The position numbers and the translations under genes were made by a program. A DNA stretch of 64,000 bases from Mustelus asterias. Lineage: Eukaryota. The notes under the pieces were generated by a model, which saw only the letters and a list, made by a program, of their open reading frames with translations, made no database searches and was not told the origin of the DNA. Within the stretch, counting starts at the first letter, position 1; each line of letters opens with the position of its first letter. The stretch covers positions 50,902,001 to 50,966,000 of the forward strand of contig NC_135808.1 in the NCBI RefSeq assembly GCF_964213995.1, in the 5' to 3' direction. This document shows positions 14,173 through 32,710 of this stretch, piece by piece.

Positions 14173-15072
14173 ATAGAATCACAGAAAATAGGAACAGGAG
14201 GAGGCCATTTGGCCCTTTGAGCCTGTGTCACTATTCATCATGATCATGGCTGATCATCCAATCAGTAGCCAGGTCCTGTCTTCCCCCCCAAATTCTTCGA
14301 TCCCATTCACCCCAAGAGTTAAATCTAACTCCTTCTTGAAAACGTGCAATATTTTGGCCTCAACTGCTTTCTGTGGTAGTGAATTCCACAGGTTTACGCC
14401 TCTCTGGGTGAAGGAATTTCTCCTCACCTCAGTCCTAAAAGATTTACTCCATATCCTCAGACTGTGACCCCTCAAACTGGATGCTCCCAGCACTGGGAAC
14501 ATGCTTCCTGTATCTACCCTGTCTAGTCCTGTTGGAATTTTATAGATTTTTATACGATTCTCCCCTCATTCTTCTGAACTGCACTGAGGGCAGCACGGTG
14601 GCACTGTGGTTAGCACTGCTGCCTCAGAGCAACAGGGACCCAGGTTCGATTCCCGGCTTGGGTCACTGTGTAGAGTTTGGACATTCTCCCCGTGTCTGTG
14701 TGGGTTTCCTCCAGGTGCTCCGGTTTCCTCCCACAGTCCAAAAGGTGTGCAGGTTAGGTGAATTGGCCATGCTAAATTCTCCCTCAATATACCCGAACAG
14801 GCACCGGAATATGGCCACATGGGGATTTTCACAGTGACTTCATTGCAGTACGAATGTAAGCCTACTTGTGACCAATAAATAAATTTTTTAAAAAAATAAT
14901 CTTAACCAACGCAATCTCTCCTCCTACATCAATCCCACTATCGCAGAAATCATTCCAGTAAACCTTTGCTGCACTCCCTCTGTCGCAAAAACATCCTTCC
15001 TCAGATAAGGAGAGTAAAACTGTACACATTATTCCCAGTGTGGCCTCATCAAGGCCCTGTATAACTGCAGAA
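14173..15072 (-). mobile_element. CR1 3'-end fragment interrupted by a SINE
   Basis: RGHSLRI...RRNSFTQRGVNLWNSLP motif in ORF 14254-14502. Confidence 0.8.
14588..14882 (+). mobile_element. tRNA-derived V-SINE
   Basis: A box TGGCACTGTGG, B box GGTTCGATTCCC, conserved core TTCTCCCCGTGTCTG...GGGTTTCCTCC...GGTTTCCTCCCACAGTCCAAA. Confidence 0.88.
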
Positions 15073-18573: not shown

Positions 18574-18846
18574 TCTGCTCTCTGCCTCACTCACTCACTC
18601 ACTCATCTCTTCTCTCTCACTCTTTCTCTCTCACTCTTTCTCTCTCTCTGTTTCTCTCAATGTCTCAGTGTTTTGTTGGGAGAGTTGAGAATTCTAATTT
18701 GAGATGATAAATCTTTCAGCTGCCCTTCATATGTGGACATGGAGAGTAAGAGGGAAACTCGAGGCCTTCAGCGAGCGGTGGACACCACAGGGACTGGAGT
18801 GTGTAGTGGACAGTGCAAATAATTTGTCCAGTTTCCTTTCTTGTCT

Positions 18847-19575
18847 TTATTATATATTATATAAAACTGTGGGATGTGTCAGTACAGGAGGTGGGACTGT
18901 GTGTCCATTATTATATATTATATAAAACTGTGGGATGTGTCAGTACAGGAGGTGGGACTGTGTGTCCATTATTATATATTATATAAAACTGTGGGATGTG
19001 TCAGTACAGGAGGTGGGACTGTGTGTCCATTATTATATATTATATAAAACTGTGGGATGTGTCAGTACAGGAGGTGGGACTGTGTGTCCATTATTATATA
19101 TTATATAAAACTGTGGGATGTGTCAGTACAGGAGGTGGTGCTGTGTGTCCATTATTATATATTATATAAAACTGTGGGATGTGTCAGTACAGGAGGTGGG
19201 ACTGTGTGTCCATTATTATATATTATATAAAACTGTGGGATGTGTCAGTACAGGAGGTGGGACTGTGTGTCCATTATTATATATTATATAAAACTGTGGG
19301 ATGTGTCAGTACAGGAGGTGGGACTGTGTGTCCATTATTATATATTATATAAAACTGTGGGATGTGTCAGTACAGGAGGTGGTGCTGTGTGTCCATTATT
19401 ATATATTATATAAAACTGTGGGATGTGTCAGTACAGGAGGTGGGACTGTGTGTCCATTATTATACATTATATAAAACTGTGGGATGTGTCAGTACAGGAG
19501 GTGGTGCTGTGTGTCCATTATTATATATTATATTAAACTGTGGGATGTGTCAGTACAGGAGGTGGTGCTGTGTGT
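18847..19575. repeat. 61-bp minisatellite, ~12 copies, between the V and J RSSs
   Basis: Unit TTATTATATATTATATAAAACTGTGGGATGTGTCAGTACAGGAGGTGG(GA/TG)CTGTGTGTCCA; unit 1 at 18847, unit 12 at 19518. Confidence 0.97.
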
Positions 19576-19580
19576 GTTGG

Positions 19581-19608
19581 GGTTTTTGTAAGGCTCTGTA
19601 TCACTGTG
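19581..19608 (-). other. V recombination signal sequence, 12-bp spacer
   Basis: CACAGTG (19608-19602), 12-nt spacer, ACAAAAACC (19589-19581); perfect consensus, kappa-type V12/J23 arrangement. Confidence 0.97.
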
Positions 19609-19907
19609 TAGAGGGTAGTTTTCACCTTGCTGACAGTAATAATCAGCGACATCCTCATTCTGTACATTGCTGATTTTTAGGGTGAAACTTGTCCCAGATT
19701 GACTCCCGCTGAATCGGTCGGATATTCCTGTGAATCGTGTTGATGCACGATAAATCAGCAGAGCCGGTTTCTGTCCTTCTCGCTGTTGGTACCAATTCAC
19801 GTAACTGCTAACAGATTGACTGGCCGTACAGGTGATGGTGGCGGTCTGCCCCAGGCTCACTGACAGCACCGGGGGAGACTGGGTCATGATGCTGTCTCCA
19901 TTGATAC
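19609..19907 (-). CDS. IGKV: Ig light-chain V exon, kappa / type III (NS4-like)
   Basis: AG acceptor at 19908-19909; [53 protein letters not shown]...[36 protein letters not shown], open frame with conserved Cys, Trp and YYC. Confidence 0.97.
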
Positions 19908-20093
19908 CTGAGGGGTAATAGAGAAACAGAGTGAAGTAAGAACTGTCACAGAAAGACGCTGTACAATGAGATATTGTTGGAGACACTGACTGTTCCTCTC
20001 CTTTCAGCATTTTCCCTTCAATCACAAGTCAGGAGAATTGGATTGAAATGGAGAGCAGGAAAATATTCAAGGTGGAAGGAGAGAGATTTGTAC

Positions 20094-20142
20094 CTGCGAT
20101 GCAGAATGCCAGAGGCCAGAGCAGCTGGATGGCTGAAATCAT
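20094..20142 (-). CDS. IGKV: Ig V leader exon (MISAIQLLWPLAFCIA-G)
   Basis: ACCATG Kozak context; hydrophobic signal peptide; 49 nt, phase 1; GT donor at 20093-20092; 186-nt intron. Confidence 0.92.
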
Positions 20143-20281: not shown

Positions 20282-21307
20282 GCACCTTTCACTTCCTCTT
20301 CTTCTCTCTCCCTCCCTCAGTCTCTGTCCCTCAGTCTCTGTCCCTCAGTCTCTGTCCCTCAGACTGTTTCCTCAGTGTCTGTCTCTCTCACTCTATTGAT
20401 ATCTCTCCCTCACTCACTGTCCCTTTCACTCTCTGAGTAACTGCCCATTATTTTTTTAAATGAAAGCTACTTGCCTGGGGGGAGTGTTCTCATTGTTCAC
20501 CCGGAGCAAGGCTGAGAGGAGCGATTTGTGATACAGTAAAAAGGGTAAGGGAATAACTTTATTTTCATTACTTTATCACGGGGTTTCTTTTTTACCAGTT
20601 TTAGGCAAAAAGCGGAAGTAGGCCGGGCGCGGGGTGACCTGGGAAAAAACATTTTTTAAGCGCGCGGGAGGTTTAAGAAGCAGGCCACACTATCCAGCGG
20701 GCAGCGTTGTAGCGGGCAGCGGAGTGAGAGCTAAAGGGCTTTGGCTCATCGGGCTTAGGCGGAAACAGGCGAGGCAGGTAGGGTTATTTCTTAGTTTGTA
20801 ATAACTTAAACTAGGTAATTATGATGGAGGGTCATGTGATGTGTTGTTTCTGCATGATGTGGGAGCTGGTGGACCCCACTGTGATTCCCAGTGAGCATGT
20901 CTGCAGTAAGTGTTAGTTGCTTGAGGAACTCCGGCTCAGCGTTGATGAGCTGGATTCTGAGCTTCGGACACTGCGATATATCAGGCAGGGGGATAGTTAC
21001 CTGGACACTTTCAGGAGGCAGTCACAGCCCTTAGACTAACTAATTCAGCCGGGGGTCAGGGACAAGAGGGTGTGGCTGCGAGTGAGGCAGGAAGTGGGAT
21101 CCAGAAGGTAGAGTTGCAGGAGCCTCAGTCCCTGAATCTGTACAACAGGTTTGAGATTCTTGCTCCCAGTGTGGACGGGAACGGGGACTGCAAGGAGGAC
21201 GAGCAAACTGCCCATGGCACCGTGGTACAGGGAGCCGTTCAGATGGAGGAGGAAAAAAGAAATGTCGTGGTAATTGGGGATAGTATAGTTAGGGGCATTG
21301 ACACTAT

Positions 21308-21610
21308 CATAGGATTATAGAATCCCTGCGGTGCGGAGGGAGGCCATTCAGCCCATCGAGTTTGCACCGACCACAATCCCACCCAGGCCCTATTCCTGTA
21401 ACCCCACATATTTGCCCTGCTAGTCCCCCTGACACTAGGGGTAAATTTGGCATGGCCAATCAACCTAGCCTGCACAGTTTTGGACTGTGGAGGGAGTCCC
21501 ACACAGACACGGGGAGAGCGTGCGGGCGCCGCACAGACGGTAGCCCGAGGCCGGAGTTGAACCCGGGTCCCTGATGCTGTGAGGTAGCAGTGCTAACCAC
21601 TGTGCCACCT
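21308..21610 (-). mobile_element. HE1-like V-SINE with A-to-G changes on the plus strand
   Basis: Aligns to 39331-39668; about a dozen A>G differences. Confidence 0.85.
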
Positions 21611-22799
21611 TTTGAGGCCTTTTAACGGGCTTCAGCAGGGCTCATGCCAGCTTGGCCACCAGCAGTATTACAGTTCCCAGCCAGGGCCCGCTCATCCAAA
21701 GGAAGGCCTGCTTGTGGTCTTGTGCTGAAAGGTGTGTTTGAGTGGAACTGGGGACAGGATCAGCAGACACTGTCTAATAGCTCACCGTGATGAGATAGTA
21801 AATGGGTCAGAATCTGTGGAATCCTACGCCAATGTAGAACCAGAGAGAAAAGGGAAGAAAACTAGACAGTTTAAGAAAAAATAAAATCACTGACAGATTA
21901 CACTGTTCTTTGGTTTGAGTTGGCAAGAAGAAAAGTAAGTGGAAATTTCTGACCAGCACAATAAGCCAGTATGTAGAAAACTGCGCAACTGTGACTTAGC
22001 TTTAATTTTAATTCTGCATTCTGCACAAATAAGAATTTCTATGTTTATAACTTTCCACAAATCTAAATGGCAGCCTTAATCATGGAATTAAGAGAATTGA
22101 TAGGGATAAACGTGGAACTAGTCTAGAAATCTGATATGATCTCAATATTATTGGTTAGGTAATCCAGCCTAAACAAAGCCTATCCACTGAAAAATGCCTT
22201 TGAAGCTTTTTTTTGTCAAACTGACAGAAATAAGGCTGTTGAAGCAGAAGGCTCACTGTTAAGTTTTGAGAGCTGAAGGGACTAAATTCATAATTTATTA
22301 TACTGCACATTGGTTGGAGTTATTCATGGGACATTGCTCCAATGTCATGCTCAGGAAGCCCACCTCATTCCCAGAGCATGAAACCTGCTGAATTGGGAAG
22401 GTAGACGCAGTGGGTACCAAGGCTCAGGTTGTTGTTCCTGGGTTAGGTGCAGAGGCAGGAGAATTCCCAGCTCCACAAGCCCAACCTTTAAAAATGGCCT
22501 CCTGACCTGGTGTTTGGACCGGTGGGATGGGGGCTGGAATAGGAGTTAGGGGGTGACCGCAGAAGTAGTTAGGTAGGCCTGGTGTGGGTTGGACGACTCA
22601 GACACAGATAAAAAGCAGACCTTAAAAGTCCTATTTGAGAAGTAGGTCGTCCACGATGAAACCCCTGTGCCTCCGAGGGAATGTCGTTGCCTTGGCAAGG
22701 GAGTGTCAAAGTTATAAATGGTGTCCAACTGTTAGCCGATCCTGGAATGGATGGCCCATCATGGACTTTCCCAATGGAAGAATTGTCATTGTTGCTGCC

Positions 22800-23560
22800 T
22801 AATCAACTCTTCTGATCCACTGAAAGCATGGAGTGTGTTCTCAAGACACAGCCATGGAGGTGGCATTGTCTGGCCAATAGAGATATTTTGCAGTCATGTC
22901 GTTAGCTGCCAAGACTCAGTGGATGGATGAATGATGAACAGTGCCATGCTCATTATCCCATCCACTTGCCTTGTTGCCACTCATCTATCAGGATGTGTGT
23001 GCCCACATTGATGACCCTTGCCCAGGTCCCTCACAGCTGCACACTCTCATAGCATAACAGTGTGACTAAGATGGAGTAAACCAGGTTGTCAGTGGTCAGG
23101 GGGAACAACATGCTCCCTTGGAACCACAGCTACAGCTGATACGTCACCAAGCATTTGTGCAGAGCCATTCTTTCCACACACCATTGTCAGTAATCATTGA
23201 TGGCATGGTGAAAATGGTGAGTGCATATAAGCACACAAAAAGTGAATGAGAGAATGGCTCACCACCCTTTACACCTTACATTTTAATCATAGAGTTACAC
23301 ACAAAGGAGAAGTGATGTAAAGGGTGGGTCCAGCCACACCTCATGGACCAAGACCTTCAGTTTCAGGTGCAAAAAGTCCAGAAGAGCAGACCAGTCCTTC
23401 ACCCTGCTGGCCTTCACAATTCCCCTGTAGCAAACTAGAAGCTTATGTTCAAACAGCAGCTGTGCTGAGCACAGCAGGAGAGCTTCAGCACTCATGGATT
23501 CAGTGCAGGAAAAAATTCAATGACCTGCTGTGTTCCAGCAAGGTAAGTAGCCTGGCTCAT
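22800..23560. mobile_element. Degraded Harbinger-like DNA transposon relic
   Basis: Plus-strand Myb/SANT-like HSWIQCRKKFNDLL (~23489-23530) followed by a GTAAGT donor; faint transposase-like remnants on the minus strand ~22980-23175. Confidence 0.45.
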
Positions 23561-23786
23561 CCACACAGAACTCCAAGTGAAGGATCATATCTGTGTGCTC
23601 CAGCTAAGGTGTGAGACATGGCACTTACCTCTGCTTTAGTATTGAGGTGTGTATGTATACACAGCTCACATAAATGCACACAGAACACATGTGAAGAAGC
23701 ACTGTGAAGCACCGCTACAGTGAAGAGCAATATCACTCTATGTCCTATATATCAGGCTAACGTAAATTCATGCTGTCATTGTATAA

Positions 23787-24088
23787 GTTTATTTATCAGT
23801 GTCACAAGTAGGCTTACATTAACACTGCAATGAAATTACTGTGAAAACTCCCTAGTTGCCACACTCCGGCGCCAGTTTGGGTGCACTGAGGGAGAATTTA
23901 GCATGGCCAATGCACCTAACCAGCACATCTTTTGGACTGTGGGGGGAGGCCGGGGCACCCGGGGGAGGCCCGCGCGGGCGTGGGGGGAATGTGCGGACTC
24001 CGCGCGGACGGTGGCCCAGGCTGGGAATCGAGCCCGGGTCTCTGGCGCTGTGAGGCGGCAGTGCTAACCACTGTGCCACTGTGCTGCC
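23787..24088 (-). mobile_element. V-SINE, heavily A-to-G mutated on the plus strand
   Basis: Same subfamily tail as 14588-14882; about 22 A>G in 23940-24060. Confidence 0.9.
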
Positions 24089-24274
24089 TTTGCATTTCAA
24101 AATGGTGACAAACACTGCAGAGATGACCCCGACTGGGTGTCAGCGTGACTGCTACACATCCATCCTGTTAAACAGATGGGCATGGAGATTGCCAGCGTGC
24201 CTGAACAGCTGCCCATGATGATGGCCGTCTGCTGTGCCCACTACTTTGGCTGTGTTTGCATTCCATGTGTCACA

Positions 24275-25698
24275 GGATGTGGTCCCTATATTCAAGAAAG
24301 GGAACAGGGACAGCCCGGGAAATTACCGACCGGTGAGTCTAACCTCAGTGGTTGGTAAGTTGATGGAGAGGATCCTGAGAGACAGGATTTATGATCATCT
24401 AGAGAAGTTTAGTATGATCAAAAGTAGTCAGCAAGGCTTTGTCAGGGGCAGGTCGTGCCTTACGAGCCTGGTTGAGTTCTTTGAAAATGTGACCAAACAC
24501 ATTGACGAAGGAAGAGCGGTGGATGTGGTCTATATGGACTTCAGCAAGGCGTTCGATAAGGTCCCCCATGCAAGACTTCTTGAGAAAGTGAGAGGGCATG
24601 GGATCCAAGGGGCTGTTGCCTTGTGGATCCAGAACTGGCTTGCCTGCAGAAGGCAGAGAGTGGCTGTGGAGGGGTCTTTCTCTGCATGGAGGTCAGTGAC
24701 CAGTGGAGTGCCCCAGGGATCTGTTCTGGGACCCTTGCTGTTTGTCATTTTCATAAATGACCTGGATGAGGAAGTGGAGGGATGGGTTGGTAAGTTTGCT
24801 GACGACATCAAGGTAGGTGGTGTTGTGGATAGTTTGGAGGGATGTCAGAAGTTGCAGCGAGACATAGATAGAATGCAAGACTGGGCGGAGAAGTGGCAGA
24901 TGGACTTCAACCCGGATAAGTGTGTGGTGATCCATTTTGGCAGATCCAATGGGATGAAGCAGCAGTATAATATGAAGGGTACCATTCTTAGCAGTGTAGA
25001 GGATCAGAAGGACCTTGGGGTCCGGGTCCATAGGACTCTTAAATCGGCCTCGCAGGTGGAGGATGCGGTCAAGAAGGCGTACGGCGTACTGGCCTTCATT
25101 AATCGAGGGATTGAGTTTAGGAGTCGGGAGATAATGCTGCAGCTTTATAGGACCCTGGTTAGACCCCACTTGGAGTACTGCGCGCAGTTCTGGTCACCTC
25201 ATTACAGGAAAGATGTTGAAGCCATTGAAAGGGTGCAGAGGAGATTTGCAAGGATGTTGCCTGGATTGGGGGGCATGCCTTATGAGGATAGGTTGAGGGA
25301 GCTTGGTCTCTTCTCCCTGGAGAGACGAAGGATGAGAGGTGACCTGATAGAGGTTTACAAGATGTTGAGAGGTCTGGATAGGGTAGACTCTCAGAGGCTA
25401 TTTCCAAGGGCTGAAATGGTTGCTACGAGAGGACACAGGTTTAAGGTGCTGGGGGGTAGGTACAGAGGAGATGTCAGGGGTAAGTTTTTCACTCAGAGGG
25501 TGGTGGGTGAGTGGAATCGGCTGACGTCGGTGGTGGTGCAGGCAAACTCGTTGGGGTCTTTTAAGAGACTTCTGGATGAGTACATGGGATTTAATGGGAT
25601 TGAGGGCTATAGATAGGCCTAGAGGTGGGGATGTGATCGGCGCAACTTGTGGGCCGAAGGGCCTGTTTGTGCTGTGGCTTTCTATGTTCTATGTTCTA
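24275..25698 (+). mobile_element. CR1 LINE, 5'-truncated, intact ORF2 C-terminal frame
   Basis: ORF 24234-25616 RT motifs; (TTCTATG)n tail. Confidence 0.95.
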
Positions 25699-26114
25699 TG
25701 ACACTGTTCTTCTGTGACCAGGATCGAGAATCCCGAAGGTTGTATTGCCTGCCTGGTGCTCCTGTCCAGGATATCTCATCTGGGCTGCAGAGGAACTTGG
25801 AGTGGGAGGGTAAGAACCCAGTTGTAGTGGTCCACGTAGGTACCAATGACATAGGCAGAACAGGAACAGAGGTTCTGCAGAGGGAGTATGAAAAGCTAGG
25901 AGCCAAACGAAAAAGCAGAACCAACAAGGTAGTGATCTCTGGATTACTACCTGAGCCACAAGCAAATTGGCGCAGGGTCAATAAGATTAAGGAGGCAAAT
26001 GTGTGGCTGAAAGATTGGTGCGGGCGGAATGGGTTTGAATTCATGAGACATTGGCACCAGTATTGGGGAAGATGGGCCCTGTTCCGATGGGATGGTCTTC
26101 ATCTGAATCATGTT

Positions 26115-27748
26115 GGGATTCTGTTACTAAAGAGGTAGTGCTTGGTAGGCTAATGGGACTAAAGATAGACAAGTCCCCAGGCCCGGATGGAATGCATCCC
26201 AGGGTACTGAAAGAAATGGCAGAAGTAATGGCAGATGCGTTAGTTGTAGTTTATCAAAATTCGCTGGACTCTGGGGTAGTGCCGGCTGATTAGAAAGCAG
26301 CTAATGTGACGCCACTGTTCAAAAAAGGAGGTAGACAAAAGGCGGGTAACTACAGGCCGGTTAGCTTAACGTCCGTAGTTGGGAAATTGCTGGAATCCAT
26401 CATTAAAGAAGAAATAGCAGGACACCTGGAGAAAAATGGTTCGATCAAACAGACGCAGCATGGATTCATGAAAGGAAAGTCGTGTTTGACGAATTTACTG
26501 GATTTTTATGAAGATGTAACAAGTGCAGTTGACAGAGGGGAACTAGTGGATGTGGTGTATTTAGATTTCCAGAAGGCGTTCGATAAGGTGCCTCACAAAA
26601 GGTTGCTGCAGAAGATTAGGGTACACGGAGTTGGGGGTAAAGTGTTAGCGTGGATTGAGGATTGGCTATCTAACAGGAAGCAGAGCGTCGGAATAAATGG
26701 GTGCTTTTCTGGTTGGCAGTTGGTGACCAGTGGCGTGCCGCAGGGATCAGTGCTGGGGCCTCAACTGTTCACCACATACATAGACGATCTGGAGGAGGGG
26801 ACCGAGTGTAGGCTAACAAAGTTTGCGCATGACACAAAGATGAGTGGGAAAGTGAATTGCATGGAGGATGCGGAAAGTCTGCAGAGCGATTTGGATAGGC
26901 TAAGTGAGTGGGTGAGGATCTGGCAGATGGAGTATAACGTTGGTAATTGTGAGGTTATCCACTTTGGAAGGAATAATAGTAAAATGGACTATTATTTAAA
27001 TGGTGAAAAATTACAACGTGCTACTGTGCAGAGGGACCTGGGGGTCCTTGTGCATGAATCACAAAAACTCAGTTTGCAGGTGCAGCAGGTGATCAAGAAG
27101 ACAAATGGAATGTTGGCCTTTATCGCGAAGGTGATGGAGTATAAAAGCAGGGAGGTCTTGCTGCAACTGTACAGGGTACTGGTGAGGCCGCAACTGGAGT
27201 ACTGTGTGCAATTTTGGTCCCCTTATTTGCGGAAGGATATATTGGCCTTGGAGGGGATACAGAGAAGGTTCACCAGGTTGATACCGGAGATGAGGGGATT
27301 AGCTTATGAGGAGAGATTGAGTAGATTGGGCCTGTACTCGTTGGAGTTTAGAAGGCTGAGGGGAGATCTTATAGAGACATATAAGATAATGAAGGGGCTG
27401 GACAGGGTAGAGGCAGAGAGATTCTTTCCACTGAGAAAGGAAACAAGAACTAGAGGACACAGCCTCAAAATAAGGGGGAGTCAGTTTGGAACAGAGTTGA
27501 GGAGGAACTTCTTCTCTCAGAGGGGAGTGAATCTCTGGAATTCTCTGCCCATTGAAGCAGTGGAGGCTACCTCGTTAAATATGTTTAAGTCACATGTCGA
27601 TAGATTTCTGATCAATAAGGGAATTAAGGGGAGCGGGCGGGTAAGTGGAACGAAACCACTATCAGATCAGCCATGATCTTATTGAATGGAGGGGCAGACT
27701 CGAGGGGCTAGATGGCCTACTCCTGCTCCTATTTCTTATGTTCTTATA
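26115..27748 (+). mobile_element. CR1 LINE (different subfamily), 5'-truncated
   Basis: ORF 26306-27676 RT; TTCTTATG tail. Confidence 0.93.
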
Positions 27749-27989
27749 TTCTTATTAGTCTCTGCTTCTATCCACCACACTCTCGTTGTCTCCCTTTCTT
27801 GTCCTTCCTGTCTCAGACTCCTTGTTTACTCTCATTCACTCCTTCTTTCTTTCTTCTCATTCTTCCTCCCTCTCTTCCTCTCAGTTTCTCCCTCAATTTA
27901 TCGCATTCTCTTTGTTCCTCTGTATTCTCAGCTCACTCTGCCCCAGAAGAGACACCACCCTCCTGGTATCCACTCTGTCAGTCCCCTCA

Positions 27990-29934: not shown

Positions 29935-32710
29935 ACGGGGTGTGGGTGTCACTGGTTATACCAGCATTTATTGCCCATCCCTAATTGTCCTTGAGAAGGT
30001 GGTGATGAGCTGCCTTCTTGAGCCACTGCAGTCCATGAGGTGTACATACACCCACAGTGCTGTTAGGGAGCGTTTTCAGGATTCTGACCCAGCGACAGTG
30101 CATGAATGGAGATGTATTTCCACGTCAGAATGGCGTGTGGCTTGGAGGGGAATCTCCTGGTGGTGTTGATCCCAGGGATCTCCTACATTTGTCTTTCCAG
30201 ATGATAGTGGTCACGGTATTCGAAGGTGCTGCCTCAGGAACCTTGGTGAGTTCATGCAGGGCATCTTATAGATGGTACACACTGCTGCTGCTGTTCGACA
30301 GTGGTGAAGGGATTTAATGTTTGTGAATGGGTGCCAATCAACTGGGGCTGCTTTGTCCTGGATGGTGTTGAGCTTCTTGAGTGTTGCTGGAGCTCTACTC
30401 ATCCAGACAAGTGGAGAGTATTCCATCACACTCCGGACTTGTGCCTTGTAGATGGTGGACAGGCTTTGGGAGGTCAGGATGTGAGTTACTCACCGCAGGA
30501 TTCCTATCCACTGACCTGCTCTTGTAGCCACAGTATTTATAGGCTGGTCCAGTTGAGTTTCTGGTCAATCATATCCAACAGGATTTTACAGTGGGGGATT
30601 CAGCAATGGTAATGACATTGAATGTCAAGGGGAGATGTTAAAATTCTCTCTTGTTGGAGATGGTGGTTCCGTGGCACTTGTGTGGCACGAATGTTCCTGC
30701 TTCAATATCTGAGGAGTTGTGAATGGTGCTGAGCATTGTGCAATCATCAGTGAACATCCCCACTTCTGAAGGTTATTAATGAAGCAGCTGAAGATGGTTG
30801 TGTCTCAGACACTACCCTGAGGAACTCCTGCAGTGATGTCCCAAGGCAATCTCAGATTGCAATCCGCTAACCACAACCATTTTCTCATCATATTGGGTGG
30901 CATGGTGACACACTCGTTAACACTACTGCCTCACAGCGCCAAGGACCCGGGTTCAATTCCTGGCATGGGTCACTGTCTGTGTGGAGTTTGCATGCTCTCC
31001 CCGTGTCTGCTTGCGTTTCCTCCGGGTGTTCCGGTTTCCTCCCACAGTCCAAAAGACCTGCTGGTTAAATGCATTGGTCATGCTAAATTCTCCCTCAGTG
31101 TACCCGAACAGGCGCCGGAATGCGGTGACTAAGGCATTTTCCTGGTAACTTCATTGCAGTGTTAATGTAAGCCAACTTGTGACACTAATACTGACACTTA
31201 AACTTAAAAGTCCAATAACCACAACCATCTACCTTTGTGCTGGGTGTGACTCCAGCCAGTGGAGAGTTTCCCCCTGATTCCCATGGGCTCCAGTTTTACG
31301 AGGGCTCCTTGATGCCACACTCGGTCAAATGTTGCCTTGATGTCAAGGGCAGTCACTCTCACCTCACCTCTGGAGTTCAGCTCTTTTGTCCATGTTTGAA
31401 CCAAGGCTGTAATGAGGTCAGGAGCTGAGTGATCCTGGCGGAACCCTAACTGTGTGTCACTGAGCAGGTTGTTGCTCGTAAGTGCCGCTTGATAGAACTG
31501 TCAACAATTTAAATCACTTCACTGATGATTCAGAGTGGATTGTTGGGGCGGTAAGAGGCCAGAATAGAATTATCCTGTTTTTTGGTATACAGGACATGTC
31601 TGGGCAATTTTCCACATTGCCGGATAGATGCCAGTGTTGTAGCTGTACTGGAACAGCTTGGCTGGGGGCACGACAAGTTCTGGAGCGCAGGTCTTCAGGA
31701 CTATTGCGGGATTATTGTCAGGAGACAGAGTCATTGCTGAATCCAGTTGCAAATGTATCAGCCTTTTCTTTTCACTGATGGGCTGGGCTCCTCCATCATT
31801 GAAGATGGGGATATTTGCGGAGCCTCCTCCTCCAGTGAGTTGTTTAATTGTCCACCACCATTCACGGCTGGATGTGACAGGACTACAGAGCTTAGATCTG
31901 ATCCATTAGTTGTGGGATGGTTTAGCTCTGTCTATCACTTGCTGCTTCTGCTGTTTGGCACACAGTCCTGTGTTGTAGCTTCACCAGGTTAACACCTCAT
32001 TTTTCAGTTTATTTGCTGTTGCTCCTGCCATGCCCTCCTGCACTCTTCATTGAACCAGGGTTGATCCCCAGGCTGGGTGGTAATGGTAGAGTGGGGGATA
32101 TGCCGGGCCATGAGGTTACAGATTGTGGTTGAGTACAATTCTGCTGCTGCTGATGGCCCACAGTGCCTCATGGATGCCCAGTTTTGAGTTGCTAGATCTG
32201 TTTGAAATCGATCCCATTTAGCACGGTGGCAGTGCCACACAACACGATGGAGGGTATCCTCAATGTGAAGATGGGATTTTATCTCCACAAGGACTGTGCG
32301 GTGGTCACTCCTACCGATACTGTCATGGACAGATGCATCTGCGGCAGGCAGGTTGGTGAGGATGAGGTCAGGTGTTGGTTCCCTCCCCACCTGCCGCAGT
32401 CCCAGTCTAGCAGCTATGTCCTTTAGGACCCGGCCAGCTCGGTGTGTGGTGGTGCTACCGAGTAACTCTTGGTGATGGACATTGAAGTCCCCACCCAGAG
32501 TACACTCTGTGTCCTTGCCACCCTCAGTGCTTCATCCAAGTGCTGTTCAACATGGAGAGAACTGATTCACCAGCTGAGGGGGGTGGGACGGTATGTGGTA
32601 ACCAGAGGAGGTTTCCTTGTCCGTGTTTGACATGTTACCGAGAGACTACATGGAGTCTGGAATGTTGTTGAGGATTCCCAGGATAACTCCCTCCTGACTG
32701 TATCCCACTG
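29935..32710 (-). mobile_element. Jockey-group LINE, degraded, with a V-SINE inserted
   Basis: IGRSDHRTV endonuclease motif, VLKTCAPEL, ALDIKATFDRVWH and MEYSPLVW motifs. Confidence 0.82.
30894..31195 (+). mobile_element. V-SINE
   Basis: B box GGTTCAATTCC and V-domain core. Confidence 0.85.

Follow-up and report, generated by a model that had tools for sequence, protein, structure and literature searches.

A CR1-associated retrocopy of a probably ADAR-edited RNA in the genome of Mustelus asterias

The stretch of Mustelus asterias DNA analysed here (the window; 64,000 nucleotides, C8:50902001-50966000 of a 3.68-Gb assembly) contains a 4.4-kb block that interrupts an older CR1 element, a type of long interspersed element (LINE), and two short interspersed elements (SINEs) in this block carry clusters of A>G changes. 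The locus raises the question of whether an RNA that was edited before it was copied can be present as genomic DNA, and how it became fused to CR1 sequence. A sequence-only reading of the window had proposed that a cellular RNA in the same sense as the CR1 was edited and then reverse transcribed as one unit by the LINE machinery. The donor locus, the A at its edited sites, the inverted SINEs near it and a single target-site duplication (TSD) agree with this. The block is one LINE-type insertion containing a 3-kb copy of the donor, with SINEs that were likely edited by ADAR in an RNA and then likely copied by the CR1 reverse transcriptase (RT); we assign this a probability of about 0.88.

Structure of the insert and its donor

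The features of the insert and its host element are as follows (window coordinates, strand; ORF1, open reading frame 1; UTR, untranslated region).
20600–27750, plus: host older CR1 (approximate limits), whose esterase-type ORF1 the insert splits; PF13472 at 25623–26135
21299–21305, plus: left TSD, TGACACT, in ORF1 of the older CR1; single copy in 11 of 11 host peers
21306–24281, plus: copy of the donor, colinear and unspliced; aligned to C10:87202641-87199665 (minus strand)
21306–21610, minus: SINE 1, antisense to the copied RNA, putatively hyper-edited, with an 8-nt slip at its head end; 22 A>G
21611–23784, plus: donor-unique DNA and a degenerate interspersed repeat (68–78% identity to other places listed); A>G at 5 of 643 A, no hyper-editing
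23785–23879, minus: SINE 2 subfamily-specific tail, unedited; 0 of 28 A changed
23880–24090, minus: SINE 2 core, antisense to the RNA, putatively hyper-edited; 26 A>G versus the donor
24276–24281, plus: chimera junction, a 6-nt microhomology (GATGTG) common to the donor and the CR1 family
24276–25700, plus: young 5′-truncated CR1 with the C-terminal part of the RT, 3′ UTR and tail; (TTCTATG)n tail at 25680–25700
25699–25705, plus: right TSD, TGACACT

The insert proper spans 21306–25698. In all 11 peers of the host CR1 that lack the interruption, the site is present once and is followed by the sequence found here after 25705; the heptamer is identical in 10 peers and shows 1 mismatch in the other. 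Thus the block plus one copy of the TSD is a clean single insertion, as had been proposed from the TGACACT duplication that splits the CR1 ORF1. Since one TSD bounds the whole block, the pieces are not independent insertions with TSDs of their own. The host element shows 88–93% identity to its peers across its 5′ part. We take both elements to be CR1 from the tail type and the esterase ORF1. An Rfam search of 20500–26200 gave no match.

Public contigs of 4 of the 24 listed runs were compared with the window; a minority of the matches was seen, and contigs cannot prove absence. The listed runs include no RNA run, which is uninformative on expression. A joint between 21305 and 25713 is found in all four runs and was considered as an empty allele. 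It was rejected, as the host CR1 is multi-copy and the summed depths are far above single copy.

A genome search with 21615–23760 shows, besides the window itself, one 99% match, on the minus strand of C10. This is the donor locus that had been predicted, with A at the edited positions. The alignment extends over 2,976 bp and is colinear throughout, with 93 substitutions and 2 small indels. The substitutions include 55 A>G, 11 T>C, 7 C>T and 6 G>A. Past 24281 the donor runs on as non-CR1 sequence, and no CR1 is present at the junction in the assembled donor, in contig 6 of run X1 or in contig 21 of run X4. The insert displays the hallmarks of target-primed reverse transcription, i.e. a TSD around the whole insert, a 3′ microsatellite tail, a 5′ truncation and an RT frame. 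It does not have the features of a processed pseudogene; it is colinear with the donor, carries a microsatellite tail, and no parent gene was found.

A>G changes and their duplex partners

Relative to the donor, SINE 1 displays 22 A>G and 12 other substitutions, and the SINE 2 core 26 and 10. The corresponding numbers are 5 and 6 in 21611–22456, 0 and 4 in 22457–23784, 0 and 0 in the SINE 2 tail, and 2 and 6 in 24091–24281; 48 of the 55 A>G therefore fall within the two antisense SINEs. A site was taken as a robust edit when A is present in the donor and in most of 38–39 near-full-length SINE copies and G in the insert only, which gives 19 sites in SINE 1 and 21 in the SINE 2 core, 40 in all. 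The G at these sites is derived, since both the donor and most copies have A. At the 8 other SINE sites G is the common letter. These were set aside: either the donor lineage changed from G to A, or editing brought back the common letter. Per A, 40 of 137 are changed in the SINEs versus 7 of 714 elsewhere (p = 2e-27), and window-only changes in the SINEs number 40 for A>G and 1 for T>C. Against the column majority, the two SINEs of the insert carry 21–23 A>G each and five other near-full-length SINEs in the window carry 1–2, in keeping with the earlier remark that such clusters were not seen in the other SINE copies. The 7 A>G outside the SINEs are not taken as edits; 4 of them are common to other samples, and several in 21611–23784 are allelic. 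CpG dinucleotides in the SINEs are about doubled by the changes (6 to 13 and 6 to 15), in part allelically. As both SINEs are antisense to the copied strand, the template was not the transcript of a SINE itself and was presumably a host read-through RNA.

The expected inverted SINEs are present near the donor, 1.1, 5.4 and 7.6 kb beyond the copied part (C10:87198277-604, 87193926-4221 and 87191728-2033). All lie downstream, and they have the SINE 2 core without its subfamily tail. The edits in SINE 2 follow this difference, with 21 of 54 A changed in the pairable core versus 0 of 28 in the tail (p = 3e-5). The nearest inverted SINEs upstream, 19 and 30 kb off, fit poorly; one spans only half of SINE 1 and the other would pair with the unedited tail. 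Tail-bearing inverted SINEs near the new site (window 14575–14886 and 30905–31203) would predict edits in the tail. Since the edits track the core shared with the downstream inverted SINEs, the edited RNA likely extended past the junction.

Neighbouring nucleotides were compared at edited and unedited A. With G on the 5′ side, 6 of 36 A are edited versus 34 of 101 with other neighbours (p = 0.058); with G on the 3′ side, 16 of 35 versus 24 of 102 (p = 0.018). Pooled with a second event found on C12 (below), the values are p = 0.023 for 5′ G and p = 0.007 for 3′ G. Depletion of 5′ G and enrichment of 3′ G have been described for the ADAR motif (PMC4365171), and the neighbour bias seen here fits it. 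The insert thus combines one-strand clusters of derived G, restriction to duplex and a neighbour bias, as in ADAR hyper-editing. An APOBEC footprint is not seen, as there are 6 G>A versus 55 A>G.

It appears hardly credible that the A>G differences arose in DNA, whether through ordinary mutation, through CpG loss or APOBEC-type G>A changes on the donor side, or through ADAR action on a DNA/RNA hybrid. Such an origin could draw on the 8 sites where G is the common letter, and ADAR has been described to deaminate DNA in hybrids (PMC5389660). However, the 40 robust sites have a derived G, editing of the cDNA strand would read as T>C on the copied strand, and editing of a hybrid would not halt at the boundaries of the SINE duplex. 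In the C12 event, moreover, the changes on a single strand extend over the two arms of a hairpin. Editing very probably preceded reverse transcription.

Joining of the CR1 and sibling copies

The CR1 part of the insert has an RT frame that is open for 446 codons up to its own stop and matches PF00078. The final TG of its tail is common to the TSD. Among 19 family peers, the 18 that could be aligned differ from it by 5–14 positions per approximately 1,415 bp, and 4–5 of the changes in the insert are nearly private. The low divergence indicates that the insertion event is young. The source CR1 was not found; among the CR1 peers, none has more than one of the five rarer letters of the insert. The GATGTG at the junction is present in the donor and in 17 of the 19 peers. 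That approximately 3 kb of non-CR1 sequence is fused to a 5′-truncated CR1 was recognised in the sequence-only reading; the breakpoint it gave, 24275, is replaced by the shared 24276–24281. An unrelated young CR1 at C18:1145754 is 5′-truncated at most 3 nt from the same junction, which may represent a truncation hot spot or an effect of query selection. A bias toward TGACA after the tails of CR1 peers was not used, since the query contained the TSD and biased the ranking.

A genome search with the edited SINE 2 core shows further A>G-skewed copies. A pattern with four fixed A>G is found at 6 places including this insert, and a four-G>A control at 0. A donor was found for 4 of the 5 edited copies searched:
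C12:45708271-45707576 is a copy of C3:78740592-78741287, with 35 of 36 differences A>G. An inverted SINE pair is predicted to form a hairpin, in which 35 of 89 A are edited versus 0 of 73 outside it. The copy ends at the tail of the sense SINE and appears SINE-tail primed, with an imperfect TSD of approximately 10 bp. An edited sense-strand pattern is seen in this event only.
C10:85227682-85226480 (1,203 bp) is a copy of C21:81356389 downward; A>G makes up 39 of the 43 differences and falls almost wholly within the SINE. A SINE and a truncated CR1 were both present at the donor beforehand, and a 95% inverted partner lies 0.6 kb upstream. This pair and the C12 pair are the cleanest.
C22:30965893 onward is a copy of C5:29663269 onward over 1.8 kb; 24 A>G, mostly in the SINE, are found among approximately 62 differences. 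At the donor a CR1 body adjoins the copied part, and the tail is unreadable there.
C2:64377693-64373312 (approximately 4.4 kb) is a copy of C2:10252045-10247590; its first 2.1 kb contain 21 A>G. The copy ends at a CR1 tail already in its donor.
For the fifth, C8:106281151, the donor search showed no more than a related copy on C4660 that carries fewer edits and is probably a sibling.

Editing followed by retrocopying is, as read from these donor-copy pairs, recurrent in this genome.

Further A>G-skewed SINEs are found at C24:27263235-27263533, C8:106280670-106281390 and C2558 near 31300 and 35100. The edited SINE on C2558 is repeated in a tandem unit of approximately 3.8 kb, suggesting that an edited copy was amplified later. 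At the repeated head end of the edited SINE, 8 nt are missing from both the insert (window 21602) and the C2 sibling (C2:64377219), possibly through RT slippage on entering duplex, or allelically.

Several observations weigh against the account given here of an edited donor RNA joined to CR1 during copying. Read-through from a LINE or SINE resident at the donor accounts for all four siblings whose donor was found, and none is a switch. The resident tail could be read at 3 donors, and at the fourth a CR1 body is adjacent. The insert shows 38 substitutions versus the assembled donor that are not A>G, unevenly spread (22 in the SINEs and 4 in the 1,328-bp middle) and more numerous than fits such a young insertion, so that the assembled donor is not the exact template. 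A host gene for the donor was not found by Pfam among the 148 longest of 685 unmasked ORFs in 130 kb around it, where the scan gave only 2 sub-threshold matches (ELK and DDE_Tnp_4). The depletion of 5′ G is borderline in the insert alone. Among the minority of matches seen, no contig or read bridges the insert junctions, and the run with the best coverage of the locus shows only donor letters in the unique part.

That none bridges the junctions favours an artefact of assembly or library, or a somatic insertion in one molecule or tissue. Such an origin is nevertheless very unlikely. An exact TSD, tail priming, microhomology and the nearly private changes in the CR1 are not products of assembly error, and four siblings are verified by their donors, some with accumulated changes other than A>G.

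The mismatch with the assembled donor was compared with other alleles. At 9 positions in SINE 2, a difference other than A>G consists of the assembled donor departing from the common letter and the insert keeping it. Run X1 has the letters of the assembled donor and runs on into the donor flank. Run X3, a second sample of the same organism, differs from the insert by 2 other letters over 24062–24206, versus 6 for the assembled donor. Run X4, from a related organism, differs by 3 over 24063–24281, versus 10 for the assembled donor, and then continues for 1.1 kb. These comparisons, which cover 24062–24281, point to a copied allele nearer the ancestral state than the assembled allele and to a mismatch that is allelic. 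The donor appears with two alleles, up to approximately 4% apart at the ends of the segment and approximately 0.3% in the middle.

That the CR1 was joined by template switching seems rather probable. The argument that absence of CR1 from the donor implies such a switch does not follow, as the copied allele is not the assembled one and four siblings are read-throughs. A young CR1 may instead have first inserted at the junction in an unassembled donor allele; a read-through RNA of that allele would then have been edited, and its copying from the CR1 tail would be a 5′ transduction. The divergence of the alleles (up to approximately 4% locally) exceeds the age of the CR1 (approximately 0.3%). As the alleles diverged earlier, the young CR1 need not be common to both, and a CR1-free assembly is uninformative. 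Microhomology at a truncated 5′ end is equally expected on this route, the source allele does differ from the assembled one, and in all four siblings the 3′ LINE or SINE was already at the donor. However, neither the assembly nor the X1 and X4 contigs have a CR1 at the junction, and the CR1 of the insert comes from a family that is very young, which a switch would demand. The elements at the sibling donors looked older, at 84–92% identity to the best copies compared, which are not genome-wide best matches. Transduction from a resident CR1 is a serious, though less probable, alternative.

In U6-type chimeras the junction is at the 3′ end of the captured RNA. This is not the case here; the putative duplex partners lie beyond the junction, so that entry into the RNA would have been internal or after cleavage. 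Inosine-rich RNA can be cleaved, and a cleaved edited RNA might have been joined by ligation to part of a CR1 RNA, with reverse transcription following. For U6/L1 chimeras, one report places ligation by RtcB ahead of retrotransposition (PMC6789731). Ligation needs no microhomology, however, and 6 nt at the joint are unlikely by chance. We consider ligation very improbable, and ligation together with all remaining routes improbable. The weights given to the three routes are judgements, not computed values.

With a template switch, the events may be ordered as follows. An RNA polymerase II transcript in minus-strand sense would have crossed the C10 donor and continued for 1.1–1.4 kb or more beyond the copied part. 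The positions of the edits suggest that its antisense SINEs paired with the downstream inverted SINEs and that ADAR deaminated approximately 30% of the paired A. The tail of a young CR1 was primed at TGACACT in the old CR1, as the structure displays, presumably by the CR1 RT, and 1.4 kb of CR1 was copied. At GATGTG the RT may well have moved to an internal position of the edited RNA, copied 3 kb with C placed opposite inosine, and stopped at the far end of SINE 1. What the assembly shows is this product, flanked by 7-bp duplications and reading G at the edited positions.

Neighbouring features and relation to known systems

An immunoglobulin (Ig) V gene is found on one side of the insert, and two short features were noted in the window.
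19585–20142, minus: Ig light-chain-type V gene with leader, V exon and 12-spacer recombination signal sequence (RSS); PF07686

The leader ATG is at 20142, the V exon at 19908–19612 on the minus strand, and the RSS heptamer at 19608 with a spacer of 12 nt. The distance from the gene to the TSD is 1,157 bp, which agrees with the approximately 1.2 kb upstream given earlier. The gene points away from the insert, and the 5′ part of the host CR1 lies between them. As far as tested, the Ig V gene is a bystander. A 61-bp tandem array with a core approximately 99% identical (window 18725–19695) starts directly after its RSS. Within the donor copy, a short ORF at 23321–23611 ends at a GTAAGT donor-like site and displays a Myb/SANT-like motif with no Pfam match. 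The Myb-like motif is presumably Harbinger-type.

Chimeric retrocopies of the U6/L1 type, formed by template switching, have been described (PMC4494074). The insert is similar to these in having a copy of a non-LINE RNA 5′ of a truncated LINE, in the same orientation and within one TSD. It differs in that the 5′ partner is a 3-kb unspliced, repeat-rich RNA entered internally at a microhomology, is hyper-edited, and is joined to a CR1-type LINE. The 5′ transductions of SVA are read-through retroposition from an embedded LINE or SINE 3′ tail. The four siblings resemble these, as upstream host RNA was copied from a resident tail. However, the copied RNA here appears ADAR-edited, and the assembled donor of the window insert is without a CR1 at the junction.

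Hyper-editing of RNA by ADAR at paired inverted SINEs has been reported (PMC4365171, PMC2873906). The copies described here share with it the one-strand A>G clusters, the dependence on duplex, the 5′ G depletion and the 3′ G enrichment, but in them the edited form is genomic DNA, and the same assembly contains the donor without the edits. Genomic retroelements that bear deaminase footprints are also known (PMC4866542, PMC2873906). APOBEC DNA-edited long terminal repeat (LTR) elements are described in vertebrate genomes, in a screen that filtered for G-to-A and omitted non-LTR elements (PMC4866542). There too a footprint is seen in a genomic retrocopy against its source and consensus, but as G>A on the cDNA of LTR elements. 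Edited RNA has likewise been reverse transcribed into DNA in A>G hypermutated avian retroviral proviruses and in retroprocessed edited plant organelle genes. These differ in being viral genomes in infected cells or products of C-to-U editing, and not nuclear RNA moved by a LINE.

A 2016 review says of ADAR editing that its part in the evolution of Alu "has not yet been determined" (PMC4982230), and a report on expressed L1 RNA gives no editing in the half that was testable (PMC5224506). The need of CR1 for its own 3′ sequence is described as limiting host retrocopies (PMC5470649). No report of ADAR-edited non-LTR retrocopies with donors was found in the literature searched, which lacks most subscription journals. 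Thus SINE-pair hyper-editing, chimeric retrocopies and deaminase footprints are each known, and edited non-LTR retrocopies with their donors are apparently new.

The five donor-copy pairs in one genome bear on whether ADAR edits re-enter the genome by retrotransposition. From each pair one can read how a single RNA molecule, presumably of the germline, was edited, including at which A, with which partner and with what neighbour bias, and this without RNA sequencing. They also indicate that CR1-type machinery copies kilobases of unspliced host RNA via embedded tails. It is quite likely that a standing route leads from RNA editing to heritable DNA. In it, CR1-type RTs would copy hyper-edited nuclear RNAs of germ cells, either priming on any embedded LINE or SINE tail or changing template to the RNA, and the genome would keep tens or more single-molecule fossils of germline editing along with their donors. 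The comparison of an edited copy with its donor scales to any assembly. If the route is true, it would be a general and so far unscreened source of mutation in vertebrates with LINEs that recognise 3′ tails.

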